From the IMG/VR virus record IMGVR_UViG_2657244943_000008, positions 1 through 10,588 of that record: a DNA stretch of 10,588 nt, one strand, 5' to 3'. Shown here piece after piece: positions 1 through 10,588 of the stretch. Below the pieces are notes generated by a model. The model saw only the letters and a list, made by a program, of their open reading frames with translations, was not told the origin of the DNA and did no database searches. This stretch comes from a virus. Its lineage: Duplodnaviria > Heunggongvirae > Uroviricota > Caudoviricetes. The first letter of the stretch is position 1, and each line of letters begins with the position of its first letter. A program made the translations under genes and the position numbers.

Positions 1-366
1 TGATGCATATGATGGCATATCAGGTATCTGATTTTCCCCTGTTCCCACATTTCGTTTTGCCGCTTCTCCCAAACCAAGGTTTTCGAGAGCCGTTTTCACC
101 GTGCCATCCGATTTGATATCGCCAAACGGATTCTTGCGGCTTAACAGCAGCGCACGAAGCGCTGTAAGCAGCTGGTCATGCCGCCCCTTCTCTAGGCTGG
201 CACCGGATGCCTCCACAACACTGCAAAGTTCCTCCTGCAACATGTCAAAGTAGTCATCATCCAGATCGGTGGCAGGTGTGCCGGTCTGGGGGTTACCACG
301 GGTAAAACCGTTCTTACCCGCGCCGAACTTATCCTTCTGCGCGGTTTTCGTGTCTATACGATGCAT
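1..366 (-). CDS. Phage tail-fibre-like protein, N-terminal ~122 aa; gene continues beyond the left edge of the window
   Basis: Open minus-strand frame from ATG at 366-364 to position 1 with no stop (so absent from the complete-ORF track). GGAG lies 6 nt upstream of the ATG. Translation begins [55 protein letters not shown] and contains ...[25 protein letters not shown], a Gly-rich motif I recall as typical of enterobacterial phage tail-fibre proteins. Family assignment is from memory only. Confidence 0.45.
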
Positions 367-478
367 GGATTACTCCGGATACCCGGGCAGGAAGCGCCCC
401 GTCGTCATACTCACCGGCCTGAATGACCTCAACACGCATACCGTCCGGTGACCATTTCAGATCTTGTTTCAGGATCAT
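332..478 (-). CDS. Small hypothetical ORF (48 aa) between the Rz-like gene and the tail-fibre-like gene
   Basis: ATG at 478-476 preceded by GGTGA; translation [49 protein letters not shown]; overlaps the start of the 1..366 gene by about 32 nt in another frame. No recognisable family. It could be real, or the frameshifted 5' part of the downstream gene. Confidence 0.2.
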
Positions 479-500
479 GATTCTTCACCCGTCAGAACAG

Positions 501-520
501 GGGGCGCGGTTCCGCGCCCC
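501..520 (-). terminator. Perfect GC-rich hairpin (GGGGCGCGG-TT-CCGCGCCCC) 7 nt downstream of the Rz-like stop codon
   Basis: 9-bp perfect inverted repeat seen directly in the sequence. On the minus strand it is followed by CTGTTCTGAC, which is only a weak U-tract, so intrinsic-terminator function is uncertain. It could also be a protein-binding palindrome. Confidence 0.35.
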
Positions 521-527
521 TGAGTGA

Positions 528-878
528 TTACGCCGCTGCAATCTTCAGCAGTTTGATGGCCTGCGAATCGACCAGCATCCCGCCGGTGCGCTTGGTGGTA
601 TAAAAACCGACAAACGGTTTATTGGTGTACGGGTCACGCAGAATGCGGGTGCCGATACGGTCAACGATGGTGTAACCCCGTTTGAAGTTACCAAATGCAA
701 TGGCTTTCGCATCAGCGGCGATATCCGGCATCTGTTCGTTTTCAGCGATACCGTAACCCGCCAGAGAGGACGGCTGCCCCAGCTCCAGCCCCGGACGCCA
801 CAGATAGTTAACCGCCCATGACAGACAGACGATGATGCAGATAACCAGAGCGGAGATAATCGCGGTTAATCTGTTCAT
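528..878 (-). CDS. Rz-like inner-membrane protein (i-spanin-like N-terminal anchor with a divergent C-terminal domain)
   Basis: The ATG at 878 overlaps the TGA of the endolysin gene (ATGA), which is the lambda R/Rz arrangement. The first ~24 aa (MNRLTAIISALVICIIVCLSWAVN) closely match the lambda Rz N-terminal TM anchor as I recall it. The remaining ~90 aa (…GYGIAENEQMPDIAADAKAIAFGNFKRGYTIVDRIGTRILRDPYTNKPFVGFYTTKRTGGMLVDSQ…) do not resemble the Rz coiled-coil domain. Confidence 0.6.
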   Translation of the reverse strand: MNRLTAIISALVICIIVCLSWAVNYLWRPGLELGQPSSLAGYGIAENEQMPDIAADAKAIAFGNFKRGYTIVDRIGTRILRDPYTNKPFVGFYTTKRTGGMLVDSQAIKLLKIAAA

Positions 879-1351
879 ACCTCAATCTCTCTGACCATTC
901 CGCCCGCTTCTTTGAATTTTGCAATCAGGCTGTCAGCCTTATGCTCGAACTGACCATAACCAGCGCCCGGCAGTGAAGCCCAGATATTGCTGCAACGGTC
1001 GATAGCCTGACGAATATCACCGCGATCAATCATCGGTAAAGCGCCACGCTCTTTAATCTGTTGCAGTGCCACAGCGTCCTGGCTTTTCGGAGAGAAGTCT
1101 TTCAGGCCAAGCTGCTTGCGGTAAGCATCCCACCAGCGTGAAAGAAGTTGATAACGGCCTGCAGCTGTTGATTTGAGTTTCGGGTTTAGCGTGACAAGTT
1201 TGCGAGGGTGATCGGAGTAATCAGTGAAGAGTTCTCCACCGACAATAACGTCATAACCGTGGTTACGTGTCGGTTGTCGCCCGTTATCCGTTCCCTCTGA
1301 CCATGCCACCATATCCAGGAAAGCTTTACGCTGGGAATTTAGTACCTGCAT
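875..1351 (-). CDS. R: Endolysin, lambda R-type lytic transglycosylase (158 aa)
   Basis: Translation MQVLNSQRKAFLDMVAWSEGTDNGRQPTRNHGYDVIVGGELFTDYSDHP…REIEV is nearly identical over its full length to lambda gpR as I recall it (same 158-aa length, catalytic Glu in the WSEGT motif). A strong AAGGAG RBS lies 6 nt upstream of the ATG, inside the end of the holin gene. Confidence 0.92.
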   Translation of the reverse strand: MQVLNSQRKAFLDMVAWSEGTDNGRQPTRNHGYDVIVGGELFTDYSDHPRKLVTLNPKLKSTAAGRYQLLSRWWDAYRKQLGLKDFSPKSQDAVALQQIKERGALPMIDRGDIRQAIDRCSNIWASLPGAGYGQFEHKADSLIAKFKEAGGMVREIEV

Positions 1352-1354
1352 AAA

Positions 1355-1681
1355 TTACTCCTTAGAGCCACCAAACTTGTTACCGATTACTCTCATTGCA
1401 GCCCCACGAATAGCATCAACACCGATCAGCCCCACCCCACCACCAATGGCAACAGATAGTGATTTAGGCCATCCGACATACTCAAGAGCGGATGCAAAAG
1501 TCAGCGTCAGAGCGCCACAGAGTAGAATTTCGAGTGTTTTTCGCTTCCAGCCGCCACCACCGCCAAAATAGGCAATACGTAAACCAGCCATAACAATCGA
1601 CATAATCACTGCGCCCAGCGGTGTGTCTCCACGCCACCAGCTCTGGACCAACTCCAGCCATGTATTTGGGTTATGAGGCAT
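1355..1681 (-). CDS. S: Holin, class I with three predicted TM segments (108 aa)
   Basis: Sits immediately upstream of the endolysin on the same strand. Three hydrophobic stretches (GAVIMSIVMAGLRIAYF, LEILLCGALTLTFASALEYV, LSVAIGGGVGLIGVDAI) and a charged C-terminus, the same architecture as lambda S. GAGGTGAGAG lies upstream of the ATG at 1681. Sequence similarity to lambda S is modest. Confidence 0.75.
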   Translation of the reverse strand: MPHNPNTWLELVQSWWRGDTPLGAVIMSIVMAGLRIAYFGGGGGWKRKTLEILLCGALTLTFASALEYVGWPKSLSVAIGGGVGLIGVDAIRGAAMRVIGNKFGGSKE

Positions 1682-1822
1682 TTGTAGTTATCTCTCACCT
1701 CGCTGATACAGCAGGTGCAAATTGAGGAAACATCATGTACCGCAAATCAGAAGCGGAAACGTCAAAGAAGCCGAGTCAATGGATAACTGCGGGATAGGCT
1801 AGGACCAAGGAATCCCCAGACC

Positions 1823-1855
1823 CAGAAACGACAAAACCCGCTCGATGGCGGGTTT
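1823..1855 (-). terminator. Intrinsic-terminator-like hairpin oriented on the minus strand (possible tR'-like late-operon terminator)
   Basis: Plus strand shows AAACCCG-ctcgatgg-CGGGTTT at 1834-1855. On the minus strand the stem is followed by TTTTGTCGTTTCT. It lies ~150 bp upstream of the holin start, at the boundary between ~50% GC phage DNA and the AT-rich cassette. Confidence 0.45.
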
Positions 1856-1900
1856 AAGCTGTGTGGCGAAGTAAGCACACTTAACAGATTACGATATTTT

Positions 1901-1929
1901 TTGCGTACGCGTTAGTGTTTTGATAGAAT
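1901..1929 (+). promoter_or_regulatory. Sigma70-like promoter for the two-gene cassette (TTGCGT, 17 bp spacer, TG-n-TAGAAT extended -10)
   Basis: -35 TTGCGT at 1901-1906, 17-bp spacer, TG at 1921-1922, -10 TAGAAT at 1924-1929. This would give a ~37-nt leader to the ATG at 1973, which has GGGA 6 nt upstream. Motif match only, no experimental support. Confidence 0.45.
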
Positions 1930-1972
1930 TTTCAGCCACATAAAAATTCATTCTTATAATTCGGGATATATA

Positions 1973-3148
1973 ATGGATATAACTTGTTTAGAATGTGGCA
2001 ATGTTCTTGACGACCCAACTGTAGCTTGCGATAAATGCGGTGCCACGCCTCATGTTGTAGTGCTGGGCAAACAATCGTACTTTCCTATTGGTGCTGTAAC
2101 AGCAAATCTTGAAAAAAATGATTCAAGAGCATTTGATTATCGATTAGGTGAAGTTTGGGATCTAAAAAATGAAGTCACATCTGAATTCATAACCAGAATT
2201 GAGAAAAAATTTAGCCGAAAAAACAAATTTCATAACTTCCTAGACTCAGATCACAACCCTTCATCCATTCCTACGATCCTAAAAAAATACATTAATAAAA
2301 ATAATGAATTCATTGATTTATCTAGAGCTATAATAGAGAAGCTTAAACATAATGCTAATAACGAATCGAGAGTTGCCCAACTTCAGGGGGGGAGCGTTGT
2401 TTTCATCCACTATAAGTCTACCGAACCAGAGGATTTGGGGAAACTTCTAATCGTAATGGTTGATAAACAAAGCGCCTATGACTTTGATTCGGATAAGTTG
2501 ACCCCAACAAGATTAAATCCAATTAATACCGATGCCTTACGGCAGGCTGCGATGTTCGATTTAACTTTATTCGAAGCCAGTTATCCAGAAAACAAGGGTG
2601 ACTCATATGTACATTTCTTGCAAGGTAAATCTAAAAGCGATTTTTTCAAAGACTCATTAGGTTGCCGACATGATTCGGACAATAAAAGAAGCATTCAGCA
2701 ATTATTCAGTGCTATAGATATTTTTGCTAGTAAAAACTCACTCGGTCGTGTACTGCGTGATACTATTGACAATGAAGTTAAATCCTTACTGGAAAAAAAA
2801 TCAAAAGATAAACACGGAAATAAGTCCGTTAAGATAGAGGATATTTCAAAAATAATTGACTCATGCCTGACTGATTCACACAAATGTAAGGGAACGTTTG
2901 TCGATTTTGTTAATCTTAATGGTTTCCAGATTGACCCTCAATTTGAACCAACTCCTAAAGCAGCTGAAAGCGCGCTTACAATTGAAGTGGCAGATAACGA
3001 CAATAATTTTAAGTTGAAAATAATGCGTGGAGCTATTGGAGACGAAAAGTCAAATAAGCCTGTAATTCTCACTGACAACAAATGCGAAATTGTGATAAAA
3101 TTGAGTCAGGCAAATTATGATGAACTCAAAAGATATAGAGACAGCTAA
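1973..3148 (+). CDS. Zinc-ribbon plus NdpA/YejK-like nucleoid-associated-domain protein (391 aa); cassette gene 1
   Basis: N-terminal CxxC…CxxC (CLECGN…CDKCG). The central and C-terminal region aligns by eye to E. coli YejK/NdpA as I recall it: GGSVVFIHYKS…LLIVMVDKQ versus GGIVLFCHYRY…LLVAVLNN, and YVHFLQGKSKSDFFKDSLG versus [22 protein letters not shown]. About 30% GC against ~50% in flanking phage genes. Confidence 0.6.
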   Translation: MDITCLECGNVLDDPTVACDKCGATPHVVVLGKQSYFPIGAVTANLEKNDSRAFDYRLGEVWDLKNEVTSEFITRIEKKFSRKNKFHNFLDSDHNPSSIPTILKKYINKNNEFIDLSRAIIEKLKHNANNESRVAQLQGGSVVFIHYKSTEPEDLGKLLIVMVDKQSAYDFDSDKLTPTRLNPINTDALRQAAMFDLTLFEASYPENKGDSYVHFLQGKSKSDFFKDSLGCRHDSDNKRSIQQLFSAIDIFASKNSLGRVLRDTIDNEVKSLLEKKSKDKHGNKSVKIEDISKIIDSCLTDSHKCKGTFVDFVNLNGFQIDPQFEPTPKAAESALTIEVADNDNNFKLKIMRGAIGDEKSNKPVILTDNKCEIVIKLSQANYDELKRYRDS

Positions 3149-3150
3149 TA

Positions 3151-4365
3151 ATGACAATTGCTGATGACTTATCAAGATTAGCGCAGATTATTAACGGAGC
3201 CTCAAGCAGAGTTGAGGGCTACTACACTGTCATAACTCTTGAAGAAAGCATTGTTATTGTAAATAGTTCTGAAATAATTAGACTGTTACAATCTATAGGT
3301 TATAAAAAGGCAACAACCTGCATCGAAAATAATGAAATTTGGCTAGATCGCCAAGCTTCATCTTGGGATGATGCTATAATTTATGAGAATGTTGAGTCTT
3401 TTTGGTCTAGAGTAAACACCCAAAACGCTCTTCCGAAAAATTATATCATCGGAACGCCGTTAATACTCCCTACTTCTAAGAATGAAAGCATCGAAAAAAT
3501 CCATATTTTCTTTATGTGGAAAGATATCCTTTCATTAATTTCTGATCATCATAACAGTGACTGCTCTGTCTTATTTTTCACCAATGAAGACAAAAGTTAT
3601 ACAGTCGAACTCACGCATTTTTTACAATATAGCGAGATTAATCGCTTATCGAACTCGTCTCTTAAATATGAAATTATAAAGGAGCTTCTCGACACAATAA
3701 AAATCAATGATTTACACAAAAGCGAGCGCAAGCTCGTTATACGCTCAGCCATAAACGAAGTATTTAAAGCAAATGGTACGTTCAATTTCTTTGACTTGCT
3801 TAACTCTACTGAACTCGTCAGGAAAAAATATGATGAACTATATGAGATTTACACAAAGAGGTTTTCTGTAAATAAAATTCTTAACGAACTCGATGAGAAA
3901 AATCTTGAGTTCACGAGTAAAATTAACGAATTCATATCATCTAATCAGACAAAAGCATTGACTATTCCCGGTGCATTAATAGCAGCTGGTGGCTTAGTGA
4001 AGGCTAATGAAACAACCGAAGCAATATTGATTATCGCAGGACTTTGGATGATAAAAAAAGTCAATTACATTTCTATTGAGATATTCAATGAAACATTCGA
4101 CAACTTACGTTCTCGAGTGGAGTCCGCTTTCGATAAGTATTTAAAGTTTGAAGAAAATAAAGAAATCAAAGATAATGCAGATAGTATTAAGAGTAGCATT
4201 ACAGGTTTGATTGATAAAGCTAAAAAAAGGATGAGAACTGTTAAATATCTCGCATCAGCCATGTTTTATGGAGGCCTTATTTACGTTGGATATAAACAGT
4301 TCCCAGTCTTTTTTGAAAAATCGGCAGTAAATCTATTTTATTTTTTATGCCATACTATAAGCTAA
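3151..4365 (+). CDS. Hypothetical protein with C-terminal hydrophobic (membrane-anchoring) segments (404 aa); cassette gene 2
   Basis: ATG at 3151 is 2 nt after the gene-1 TAA (TAATAATG), indicating translational coupling. The N-terminal ~260 aa are soluble with no motif I recognise. The C-terminal part has hydrophobic stretches ALTIPGALIAAGGLV, AILIIAGLWMI and VKYLASAMFYGGLIYVGY. Its 3' end overlaps the Q gene convergently by 21 nt. AT-rich. Confidence 0.6.
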   Translation: MTIADDLSRLAQIINGASSRVEGYYTVITLEESIVIVNSSEIIRLLQSIGYKKATTCIENNEIWLDRQASSWDDAIIYENVESFWSRVNTQNALPKNYIIGTPLILPTSKNESIEKIHIFFMWKDILSLISDHHNSDCSVLFFTNEDKSYTVELTHFLQYSEINRLSNSSLKYEIIKELLDTIKINDLHKSERKLVIRSAINEVFKANGTFNFFDLLNSTELVRKKYDELYEIYTKRFSVNKILNELDEKNLEFTSKINEFISSNQTKALTIPGALIAAGGLVKANETTEAILIIAGLWMIKKVNYISIEIFNETFDNLRSRVESAFDKYLKFEENKEIKDNADSIKSSITGLIDKAKKRMRTVKYLASAMFYGGLIYVGYKQFPVFFEKSAVNLFYFLCHTIS

Positions 4366-4701
4366 CATTGCTAAACAGCCATCAACAAACCCCATTGCAG
4401 TTTGCAGTTCCTTCCTAATTGTGCCATCAGAGCATTTTCTCTTCTTCGCAATAGTGCGTAATGAGATACCGATAACAAAGTGGGCGATGATGAGCTCATA
4501 TTCATCTGGTTTATACCTTCTCAACCGAGCCACACAACTGTCTATCATGATGCCTTCGTCATCATCACACTGAATCCGTGACTTTTTGCCATGAGGTAAA
4601 AGTCCCTTGAAACCAGCCGCTATCGGCTGCCAGTCCACTCCGCTATTGTCTGAAGCAGCCCAAGCTCCCCAACGATCCATTACTTCATACATATCACGCA
4701 T
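4345..4701 (-). CDS. Q: Late-gene antiterminator Q, short QuuD-like family (118 aa from the ATG at 4701)
   Basis: Translation [35 protein letters not shown]…CDDD… resembles DLP12 QuuD as I recall it ([35 protein letters not shown]…CDDD…). The track ORF begins at a TTG at 4716; the ATG at 4701 with GGAGAAAG upstream is the more likely start. Confidence 0.8.
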   Translation of the reverse strand: [118 protein letters not shown]

Positions 4702-4887
4702 CAACTTTCTCCACAAAATCAGGCCAGCACACCAATTGCCAGCGCACGATCGATAAGACCAGGGACAATTACTGACTCTTGCCGGTGAGCCTGACGGAAA
4801 ACTCCGCGCAGCAGGTCATTAATATCGTTCTTAATTAACTGATTATTTATCTCATCACTGAATATCTTTATATAGTGAGGACTTATT

Positions 4888-7920: not shown

Positions 7921-8886
7921 TCATTTCTTAAATTTAAGAATTTCTTTTAAGGCTTCTACTATATTTTTATCCCCATCCATGCTAATTTTCTCCTTCTCAA
8001 GAGAAACCGTAGTCTGCCCTTTTTCAAGAACAAAATTACGTTCTGTAGCCATGAGATTTTTAATAACCTCACCCATTAAGTCTTCGTTTCTAATGCCCTT
8101 AAGAAACTTTATCGCCAAAACTTTGGAATCGATATTGGTAAGCTCATTTTGAAAATACTTGACCTCATCAAAACCATTTTTGTACAACTTCAAGAAGAAA
8201 TAAGCAAATAGTTCAACGACAATTACAAATGATAATTTGGGGGCCATGTGAAGTATATATTCAAGCTTATCATTTGTGTTAATAGCATTTGTAACTGAAT
8301 ATCCAAGGTAAAGTATCCCACCAAAAGCAATAAATGCACCTAAAACCAGATTAACCCCACCACGTCTATTTAATCTATTTATTTCATTTTCTAAACGATA
8401 TACAATATCATTATAGTGTTTACTAATTTCTATTTGATTTCTAAACGAATTTATATCATTTTTCAAACTTAAATCTGCAGCCAAGAGAGTATTGCCTACA
8501 ATCTTTTTTTTAGCATTATCGATCAACTCTTGCCTTTCTTTTGATGTGAGTAAAACACCATTTAAATCTTTCGAATCATTTGTAACTAGTTGATTAAACT
8601 CTTGCTTTAAGGAGTCTAATTCTGACTTTAACTCTTCATATGAGTTAACATTCTTGTTTTTACTTTCACCTATTCCTTTATTAACATAATTTAATAAAAA
8701 TGCTGCCATAAAAGTTAAAATCAGAGTTGCAATAAAGAAACTATTTTCATCTTGAAGTATTTTAGCAACAGTGGAAAAATAACTTACGAGAAGAGGCTGA
8801 GCATTATAAAGCCCCATTCCTAACAAAACTGCAATTGCCGTACCTAAAACGAACCTTACTTCTTGTCTTTTTAGTAACCTATTCAT
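7921..8886 (-). CDS. Four-TM membrane protein with central coiled-coil and C-terminal soluble region (321 aa); candidate membrane effector
   Basis: Hydrophobic segments VRFVLGTAIAVLLGMGLY, FFIATLILTFMAAFLLNYV, VNLVLGAFIAFGGILYLGY and LSFVIVVELFAYFFLKLY. The linker between TM2 and TM3 (ELKSELDSLKQEFNQL…RLENEINRLNRR) is heptad-like. About 28% GC. Weak GGTG RBS. No confident family assignment. Confidence 0.6.
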   Translation of the reverse strand: MNRLLKRQEVRFVLGTAIAVLLGMGLYNAQPLLVSYFSTVAKILQDENSFFIATLILTFMAAFLLNYVNKGIGESKNKNVNSYEELKSELDSLKQEFNQLVTNDSKDLNGVLLTSKERQELIDNAKKKIVGNTLLAADLSLKNDINSFRNQIEISKHYNDIVYRLENEINRLNRRGGVNLVLGAFIAFGGILYLGYSVTNAINTNDKLEYILHMAPKLSFVIVVELFAYFFLKLYKNGFDEVKYFQNELTNIDSKVLAIKFLKGIRNEDLMGEVIKNLMATERNFVLEKGQTTVSLEKEKISMDGDKNIVEALKEILKFKK

Positions 8887-9448: not shown

Positions 9449-10588
9449 CTAAAATACAACTTGCTTCCTTAGTAAATCACCTCTAGCATTTGAGTAATAT
9501 TCAGTCGAATTGCCAGTAACTTCCCGGAGTACTTCTGTTACAAGGTTATTTAGTATTCCCGTAAGTTTAAGAAACTCTCCATATGAATTAGGTTTCTCAA
9601 ATATCTTTCTGGTACCGTTCGGCACATCGAGCTGCATTGCAGCATCATGATCCTGGGCTAAGTGATTTAGCCAGCGGTGAGTCTCAACAAGTACAGCAAG
9701 TTCATAGTATGTACTATGACGGAGATTATTAGCATCTGCATGGTACATTAGTGAAGCAATATCATAGCTGCTTAGATCAATACTCGAACCTTCGTCTCCA
9801 CTGTCTGCTTTCAGGGTTTTGAGCATGCGAATTGATTTTCTTAATCCACCATTGCATTGATCGCATTTGTCTTTGATACGTTGCATGTGGAGGAACGGTT
9901 CATTGTAGATACGCTCTCGTTTGTTTTTATCAATTATGGTAACTCCACGATGTTCTTCTTTTTTTGTGAGTTGGTACTCTTTCGTATCCCACCATATGCC
10001 TGGCACTACATCAACTTCTCTTTGAAGACTCCCCCCCGTTATTCTCAAGGACTTGGCGTTATTATCGTCAACCTGAGCAGCAGGAAATGTCATTTTTAGA
10101 GCATCTCGAGCTGCACGCCTAAGTTCAATGATGACGTCTCGGCCATCTTTCTCAGCTGCACTATAGCTGCCAACTCCACCGCTATCATACATAAGCATCT
10201 GAGTATCAATAATTAAAAGATCTACATCACTGAAACCTTTGATATGGATATCTAGGGGAACAGAACCTTGTACCCGAAAATCTAGGTTTAGGTCTAATTT
10301 CTTAGTCAGCTGATTTTCAATACGATACGCGGTTTCGAATGAGATCTCTGTATAGCGGGGGTCAACTGGTTGCATCGCACCAATGACATACCGGATAGCT
10401 GAATCGTCTCTTCCTCTAGACTCCCAACTTTCATTAAGCTCAAGAGCATCTTCAAGCAATGCATATTTTTCAAGGCCATCATATCTTTGATTACTCATTG
10501 ATTCTGTGGCTACTCGCAACTGATCATATGTCCCTTTACGACGTGACTTCATGCGTTCAATACGCGAACTATATGATGAATTAGACAT
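9449..10588 (-). CDS. Pol-beta-superfamily nucleotidyltransferase with cGAS/DncV-like (CD-NTase/SMODS-like) active-site motifs (at least 379 aa; start at the window edge)
   Basis: GS…D-x-D motif (RVQGSVPLDIHIKGFSDVDLLII) and a downstream third acidic motif REVDVVPG, resembling the [DE]hDhhP of OAS/cGAS/DncV-type enzymes. About 42-48% GC. The ATG coincides with the last base of the window, so the true N-terminus may lie further upstream. Confidence 0.55.
   Translation of the reverse strand: MSNSSYSSRIERMKSRRKGTYDQLRVATESMSNQRYDGLEKYALLEDALELNESWESRGRDDSAIRYVIGAMQPVDPRYTEISFETAYRIENQLTKKLDLNLDFRVQGSVPLDIHIKGFSDVDLLIIDTQMLMYDSGGVGSYSAAEKDGRDVIIELRRAARDALKMTFPAAQVDDNNAKSLRITGGSLQREVDVVPGIWWDTKEYQLTKKEEHRGVTIIDKNKRERIYNEPFLHMQRIKDKCDQCNGGLRKSIRMLKTLKADSGDEGSSIDLSSYDIASLMYHADANNLRHSTYYELAVLVETHRWLNHLAQDHDAAMQLDVPNGTRKIFEKPNSYGEFLKLTGILNNLVTEVLREVTGNSTEYYSNARGDLLRKQVVF

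Follow-up and report, generated by a model that had tools for sequence, protein, structure and literature searches.

The closest described counterparts of this locus are the Rz/Rz1 spanin pair of phage lambda on the one side and the e14 family of prophages on the other. The lambda i-spanin gene Rz, which carries the gene for the o-spanin Rz1 embedded within it, lies directly after S and R and overlaps the latter by an ATGA. The Rz protein has an N-in/C-out topology and requires both its coiled coils and an exact C-terminal length for function; loss of its last two residues abolishes activity, lysis is defective with nonsense alleles at positions 151 and 152, and the protein is proteolysed when Rz1 is missing (PMC5295617). 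The cryptic prophage e14 of E. coli K-12 has SfV and SfI among its relatives, and the e14/SfV/SfI group as a whole consists of lambdoid myophages (PMC3636060). Both e14 and the intact e14-like prophages, such as those of E. coli MDR_56 and S88, occupy the icd site with a duplicated 3' fragment of that gene, and they share intE/xisE, pinE, mcrA and an invertible tail-fibre segment. The major capsid proteins of this type belong to the Pfam family PF05065.

The window, by which we mean the whole stretch of 10,588 nucleotides analysed here, is 100% identical to sequence in E. coli ARS-C301 (NZ_CP132983.1). In the RefSeq annotation it belongs to an element that occupies the e14 site, between icd and a duplicated icd fragment, one end of it bearing intE/xisE and the opposite end pinE and mcrA, and it shares the invertible tail-fibre segment with e14 and its intact relatives. 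The element is a defective e14-like prophage: it is integrated at icd and shows internal deletions relative to an intact relative, with three junctions mapped against the intact prophage that occupies the same site in MDR_56 (NZ_CP019903.1). The genes of the latter run in the order Q, two opposite-strand genes, S, R, Rz, iss, HNH, TerS, TerL, ymfR, portal, protease and capsid (401 aa), followed by a 66-aa gene, connector, sheath, tube, tape measure, baseplate, ymfQ and the tail fibre. The remnant is distinguished from e14 and the intact e14-like prophages by its own set of three deletions (6.9, 11.2 and 7.8 kb) and by the retention of Q, S and R, which, to our knowledge, are absent from the K-12 e14.

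In this remnant, the place of an i-spanin gene, downstream of the holin and endolysin genes and on the same strand, is taken by an ORF of 116 codons (528-878, minus strand; MNRLTAIISALVICIIVCLSWAVNYLWRPG...KLLKIAAA). Its ATG start overlaps the stop codon of the endolysin gene (ATGA, 875-878) and is preceded by a GAGG Shine-Dalgarno motif. We put the probability at about 95% that this ORF is a fusion pseudogene, generated by a single illegitimate (microhomology-mediated) deletion in an e14/SfV-like lambdoid prophage at icd, and nothing that we observed contradicts such an origin.

The first of its two parts is the start of Rz. Residues 1-24 are identical to lambda Rz (NC_001416) at 22 of 24 positions and to the Rz of an intact E. 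coli prophage at all 24, and at the DNA level the identity to the MDR_56 Rz gene is 100% down to base 808, beyond which the two diverge. The PHROGs profile for the "Rz-like spanin" (PHROG 13) likewise covers only residues 1-25, and a Pfam search with the whole ORF returned no Rz or spanin family at E<=1. RefSeq labels positions 804-878 as "lysis protein, incomplete, missing C-terminus". The sole hydrophobic peak of the protein spans residues 5-23 (Kyte-Doolittle 19-residue mean of 2.6), which, together with the identity to intact Rz, gives it the single N-terminal transmembrane domain of an i-spanin; by analogy to lambda Rz, a type II (N-in, C-out) topology is expected. When residues 25-116 were aligned with lambda Rz and with the intact prophage Rz, no similarity was found. 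The fusion protein is accordingly devoid of the two coiled-coil helices and the o-spanin-binding C-terminus of i-spanins; in terms of the lambda pair, it shares the cytoplasmic tip and transmembrane domain and the position after S and R with the ATGA overlap, but lacks CC1, CC2, the linker, C99, C152 and the Rz1-binding C-terminus, as well as the embedded Rz1.

The second part is the end of a major capsid protein. The Pfam Phage_capsid profile (PF05065) matches residues 24-113 over its positions 187-280 of 280 with 96.2 bits (E=3e-27; cut-off 24.2 bits), and the PHROGs "major head protein" profile matches residues 24-116 (E=3e-43). Over the same residues 24-116, all 93 positions are identical to residues 309-401 of the MDR_56 capsid protein, which is 401 aa long, and a structure match aligns residues 24-115 with residues 294-385 of the 386-aa RcGTA capsid protein (PDB 6tb9, E=2e-25). 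In RefSeq, positions 528-809 are described as "phage major capsid protein, incomplete, missing N-terminus", such that the ORF is already annotated there as two pseudogene fragments. What survives is only the last 23% of the protein; in contrast to the e14/SfV/SfI-type capsid proteins, the fusion has no N-arm, no E-loop and little of the P and A domains, and it sits behind a membrane anchor. The head-module genes that would accompany a working capsid gene, namely those for the portal, protease and terminase, are missing from the window but are encoded by the intact relatives. The native stop codon and the hairpin downstream of it have been retained from the capsid gene. This GC-rich hairpin (approximately 498-521, -22.4 kcal/mol) was considered as a special feature in its own right and rejected, as it scores only z = -1.6 against shuffles and is the native 3' flank of the capsid gene. 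A third domain of some other kind between the two parts was also ruled out, with the Rz identity stopping at residue 24 and the capsid identity starting at that same residue.

A first-pass annotation made from the letters alone had called the ORF chimeric, with a lambda Rz anchor in its first ~24 residues and a remainder unrelated to Rz. This description stands: the anchor is residues 1-24, the capsid C-terminus residues 24-116, and no Rz similarity extends past residue 24. The same annotation had taken the remainder for a periplasmic domain and missed its capsid origin; the Pfam, PHROGs and structure matches and the 93/93 identity instead make it the C-terminus of an HK97-fold major capsid protein. 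As to its question of whether this part might be a known Rz variant, profile and structure searches both give capsid and not Rz. A recombination product, which it had offered as the third of its options, proved to be the right one, in the form of an in-frame deletion fusion for which both parents and the junction were found.

The junction can be read directly from a three-way alignment of the coding strands, in which Rz runs ...GGGCGGTTAA|TCATTACC, the capsid gene ...GCGAGGGTAA|CTATCTGT and the window ...GGGCGGTTAACTATCTGT. From position 808 upward the window has 100% identity to the Rz parent, and from position 810 downward to the capsid parent, with the overlap formed by the shared TAA, and residue N24 of the fusion is encoded by both parents. 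In a BLAST comparison with the intact prophage (L005), window positions 808-1937 correspond to 1130-1 and positions 381-813 to 8500-8069. In MDR_56 the two parents are colinear at the same icd site, and the deletion measures 6,944 bp in the coordinates of that genome; it took Rz codons 25-153, Rz1, iss/bor, HNH, both terminase subunits, ymfR, the portal, the protease and capsid codons 1-308. The size is quoted in MDR_56 coordinates because none of the sequenced genomes examined contains a single intact prophage with both flanks at 100% identity: in MDR_56 the Rz flank is 100% identical and the capsid flank 98.6%, and in 2009C-3133 the capsid flank is 100% identical and the spanin is a different one. 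For the same reason, we infer the exact ancestor of the deletion allele.

Table 1. Gene remnants, retained genes and deletion junctions in the window.
Feature	Position	Strand	Basis
Tail-fibre gene, 5' part (gp53-like); runs off the window and now adjoins the capsid remnant	1..366	-	PHROG 1396, E=3.5e-58; RefSeq
Deletion 2 junction, 1-nt microhomology	380..381		window 381-813 = L005 8500-8069; 63-381 = L005 20000-19682
5' remnant (~32 codons) of the 66-aa post-capsid gene	381..478	-	PHROG 1020, residues 1-36 of the 66-position profile
3' remnant of the HK97-fold major capsid protein gene, codons 309-401 and stop codon	528..810	-	Pfam, identity, 6tb9, RefSeq
Deletion 1 junction, in frame	808..810		3-nt microhomology TAA (coding strand), common to both parents
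5' remnant of the i-spanin gene Rz, codons 1-24 (cytoplasmic MNR and complete transmembrane anchor)	808..878	-	DNA identity, PHROG 13, RefSeq
Endolysin R, intact; lambda R-type transglycosylase, 158 aa	875..1351	-	94% identical to lambda R
Holin S, intact; lambda-family, 108 aa	1355..1681	-	Pfam PF05106, E=6e-25
Late antiterminator Q, retained	4345..4716	-	RefSeq "antiterminator Q family protein"; PF06530 in sister contigs
Deletion 3 junction, yfdQ abuts Q	4755..4759		window 1437-4759 = L011 23001-19680; 4755-7768 = L011 11871-8858

An assembly or sequencing artefact that joined unrelated regions might be suspected from the occurrence of the junction in just one of 5,426 complete E. coli genomes. 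Such an error is, nevertheless, exceedingly improbable: the exact 116-aa sequence is present on 122 contigs (127 index blocks) from NCBI, ENA and Logan, where its source name is "phage major capsid protein", and the gene neighbourhood is the same in all 24 of the contigs that were read. Moreover, in each of four fetched loci a 6.8-kb stretch that includes all three junctions shares 99.94% identity with the window, with the differences amounting to 4 SNPs. The fusion allele is real and marks one lineage, since it recurs on some 122 contigs in the same context wherever this was read, and the 4 SNPs in 6.8 kb point to the sister loci belonging to one clone.

The two other deletions bear on what the remnant could still do. 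Deletion 2, of approximately 11.2 kb, runs from the 66-aa post-capsid gene and the head-tail connector through the sheath, tube, tape measure and baseplate genes to the 3' end of ymfQ. The homology of the post-capsid remnant to intact prophages stops at base 381, and a 49-aa hybrid ORF (329-478, minus strand) crosses this second junction, continuing through the intergenic region between ymfQ and the tail-fibre gene and into the beginning of the latter in a different frame. This ORF was considered as an outer-membrane disruptor and rejected, being the truncated N-terminus of the 66-aa post-capsid gene (PHROG 1020, function unknown) joined to foreign sequence. Deletion 3, of approximately 7.8 kb relative to MDR_56, removed yfdP, ymfI, the LexA-family repressor gene ymfK, the cro-like ymfT, the replication genes, and the genes for a methyltransferase, RusA, a KilA-N protein and a DUF968 protein. 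Together, the three deletions account for about 26 kb of essential phage genes. Judged by its gene content, the remnant cannot produce virions because the terminase, portal, tail, immunity and replication genes have been deleted, and with such losses it would have no need for a working lysis system.

The lysis cassette itself is preserved up to the spanin. The holin and endolysin are identical to WP_001120496.1 and WP_001197765.1, respectively, of the intact prophages. We scanned all six frames from every ATG, GTG and TTG start for lipoproteins, defined by a lipobox Cys at positions 12-35 after a basic n-region and an uncharged h-region, and found no lipoprotein ORF in 300-1000 or anywhere else in the 10.6-kb window, whereas the same script applied to the intact locus recovered Rz1 (lipobox VVGC) and Iss. 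In the intact MDR_56 prophage, Rz1 is a 60-aa ORF embedded in Rz that RefSeq leaves unannotated; in the parent, it starts 220 nt into Rz, which is 150 nt beyond the deletion breakpoint, such that it has been wholly lost. Hence, no cognate o-spanin gene is embedded in, overlaps or adjoins the fusion ORF. The first-pass annotation had likewise noticed no embedded Rz1 and only an alternative-frame ORF without a signal peptide (MRKPLHLVTSNGV..., 545-712, minus strand), and the all-frame search for signal peptidase II lipoproteins that it proposed agrees with it. Its suggestion that the second lysis step is defective gains support at the level of sequence, with the Rz coiled coils, the Rz1-binding C-terminal end and the entire Rz1 gene gone. 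For its other suggestion, that of a different outer-membrane partner, there is neither a candidate partner gene nor, given the capsid origin of the C-terminal part, a periplasmic domain to engage one. Spanin function thus appears to be lost from a cassette in which the holin and endolysin genes are intact.

These observations also bear on whether the ORF could be a genuine variant i-spanin, in which the Rz anchor carries a new periplasmic domain and acts with another outer-membrane partner or alone. It does occupy the canonical i-spanin position, is translationally coupled to the endolysin gene, and is intact and in frame, and its allele persists on about 122 contigs. However, the "new domain" is no different from the C-terminal 93 residues of the phage's own capsid, the window has no lipoprotein ORF, the intact relatives possess a normal Rz/Rz1 pair, and an element without terminase, portal, tail, repressor and replication genes has no virions to release. 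Rz function, moreover, depends on precisely those coiled coils and that exact C-terminal length which the fusion lacks (PMC5295617). We therefore regard a variant spanin as vanishingly unlikely, and the ORF as most likely a non-functional pseudogene left by the deletion.

Under this deletion-fusion origin, a loss of approximately 6.9 kb between Rz codon 24 and capsid codon 309 kept the reading frame by chance (1 in 3), so that the start codon, Shine-Dalgarno motif and membrane anchor of Rz are now followed by the final 93 capsid residues. S, R and the fusion ORF could still be transcribed under the control of the retained Q. Late transcription, if it occurs, would be predicted to yield a 116-aa type II membrane protein that holds the capsid fragment in the periplasm. 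Of the A and P domains, this fragment comprises just the terminal strands and helices, so it should not be able to fold alone; it would probably be degraded, as happens to Rz when Rz1 is missing. Having no spanin activity, the cassette could then destroy the inner membrane and the wall through its holin and endolysin, but not the outer membrane; there would be no selection to repair such a defect, as phage production is precluded by the loss of the tail, immunity and replication genes. Upstream of the cassette, approximately 150 nt before the holin start and on the coding strand, we also observed a terminator-like hairpin (1834-1855, minus strand; AAACCCGC...GCGGGTTT, then a T-run), the position of which resembles that of the tR'-type terminators targeted by Q antitermination.

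A further possibility is that the product has been exapted, i.e., that a membrane-tethered capsid fragment or a spanin-less S-R cassette is kept because it is useful, for example in interfering with incoming phages of the e14/SfV type, as a decoy for capsid-sensing defence or in a controlled release of contents without full lysis. In keeping with this, the frame and the translation signals are preserved, Q, S and R are intact, the allele is identical in many isolates and a CBASS system adjoins the element. However, both flanks of the fusion are 100% identical to intact prophages, which implies that the deletion is recent, and the persistence of the ORF is hence no evidence of selection. The isolates with the allele appear to be members of one clone, and preservation of the frame would be expected in one of three such deletions by chance. 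The topology of Rz would also place the fragment in the periplasm, away from both capsid assembly and cytoplasmic sensors (PMC5295617). Exaptation is thus very unlikely, if slightly less so than a working spanin or an artefact.

A comparable case is offered by E. coli EC31 (NZ_CP095836.1; L002 4148-5698), in which the terminase-to-protease genes have likewise been deleted and an N-terminally truncated capsid pseudogene lies beside the lysis genes. The breakpoints differ from those of the remnant: Rz of EC31 is full length (155 aa), unfused and situated directly before the capsid pseudogene, and the tail genes have been kept. It represents an independent decay event, and the packaging block that separates the lysis genes from the capsid gene therefore seems to be lost repeatedly.

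The fusion ORF is therefore an ordinary scar of prophage decay, one that had already been annotated, and the finding is of little consequence overall. It does illustrate that deletions at short microhomologies can leave in-frame chimeric ORFs that resemble novel domain fusions: gene callers without a pseudogene model give the 116-aa protein the name "phage major capsid protein", and a reader with only the sequence at hand could see a new spanin in it. The locus further exemplifies how a holin-endolysin pair can persist intact after spanin loss, and the junction is usable as a lineage marker.

Several other features of the element deserve mention. In the sister isolates L006 and L009, the sequence to the left of approximately base 63 is replaced, and window positions 1-82 lie about 1.8 kb away in the opposite orientation (L006 8600-8681), with the crossover within 63-82; the tail-fibre ORF of these isolates is 273 aa long versus 207 aa in the window. 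This rearrangement fits inversion of the tail-fibre segment by PinE, in which case the remnant would have kept PinE activity. Between Q and the holin gene lies a pair of genes on the opposite strand (1973-4365, plus strand), coding for a 391-aa NA37/NdpA-type nucleoid-associated protein and a 404-aa hypothetical protein, with the end of the second gene overlapping the end of Q. Neither has a PADLOC match; the pair is a moron of the phage type rather than a product of decay, since the intact MDR_56 prophage has it as well.

At the integrase end, a 321-aa predicted membrane and coiled-coil protein (7921-8886, minus strand; RefSeq "hypothetical protein"), for which a PADLOC search gave no match, is encoded between intE and a gene for a 379-aa protein (9449-10588, minus strand) that continues past the window end (L012 1675-3433). 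The latter, labelled in RefSeq as just "hypothetical protein", is a CBASS CD-NTase (PADLOC Cyclase PDLC00772, E=6e-137), and next to it, immediately beyond the window end, come a gene with a Cap15-family effector annotation and then icd. The 321-aa protein may be part of the same cargo as the cyclase. In MDR_56, the slot between icd and intE holds other cargo, namely a DarT pseudogene, IS50R, an HD-domain protein and a macro-domain protein, and the integrase end of the e14-like prophages looks like a variable slot for defence genes.
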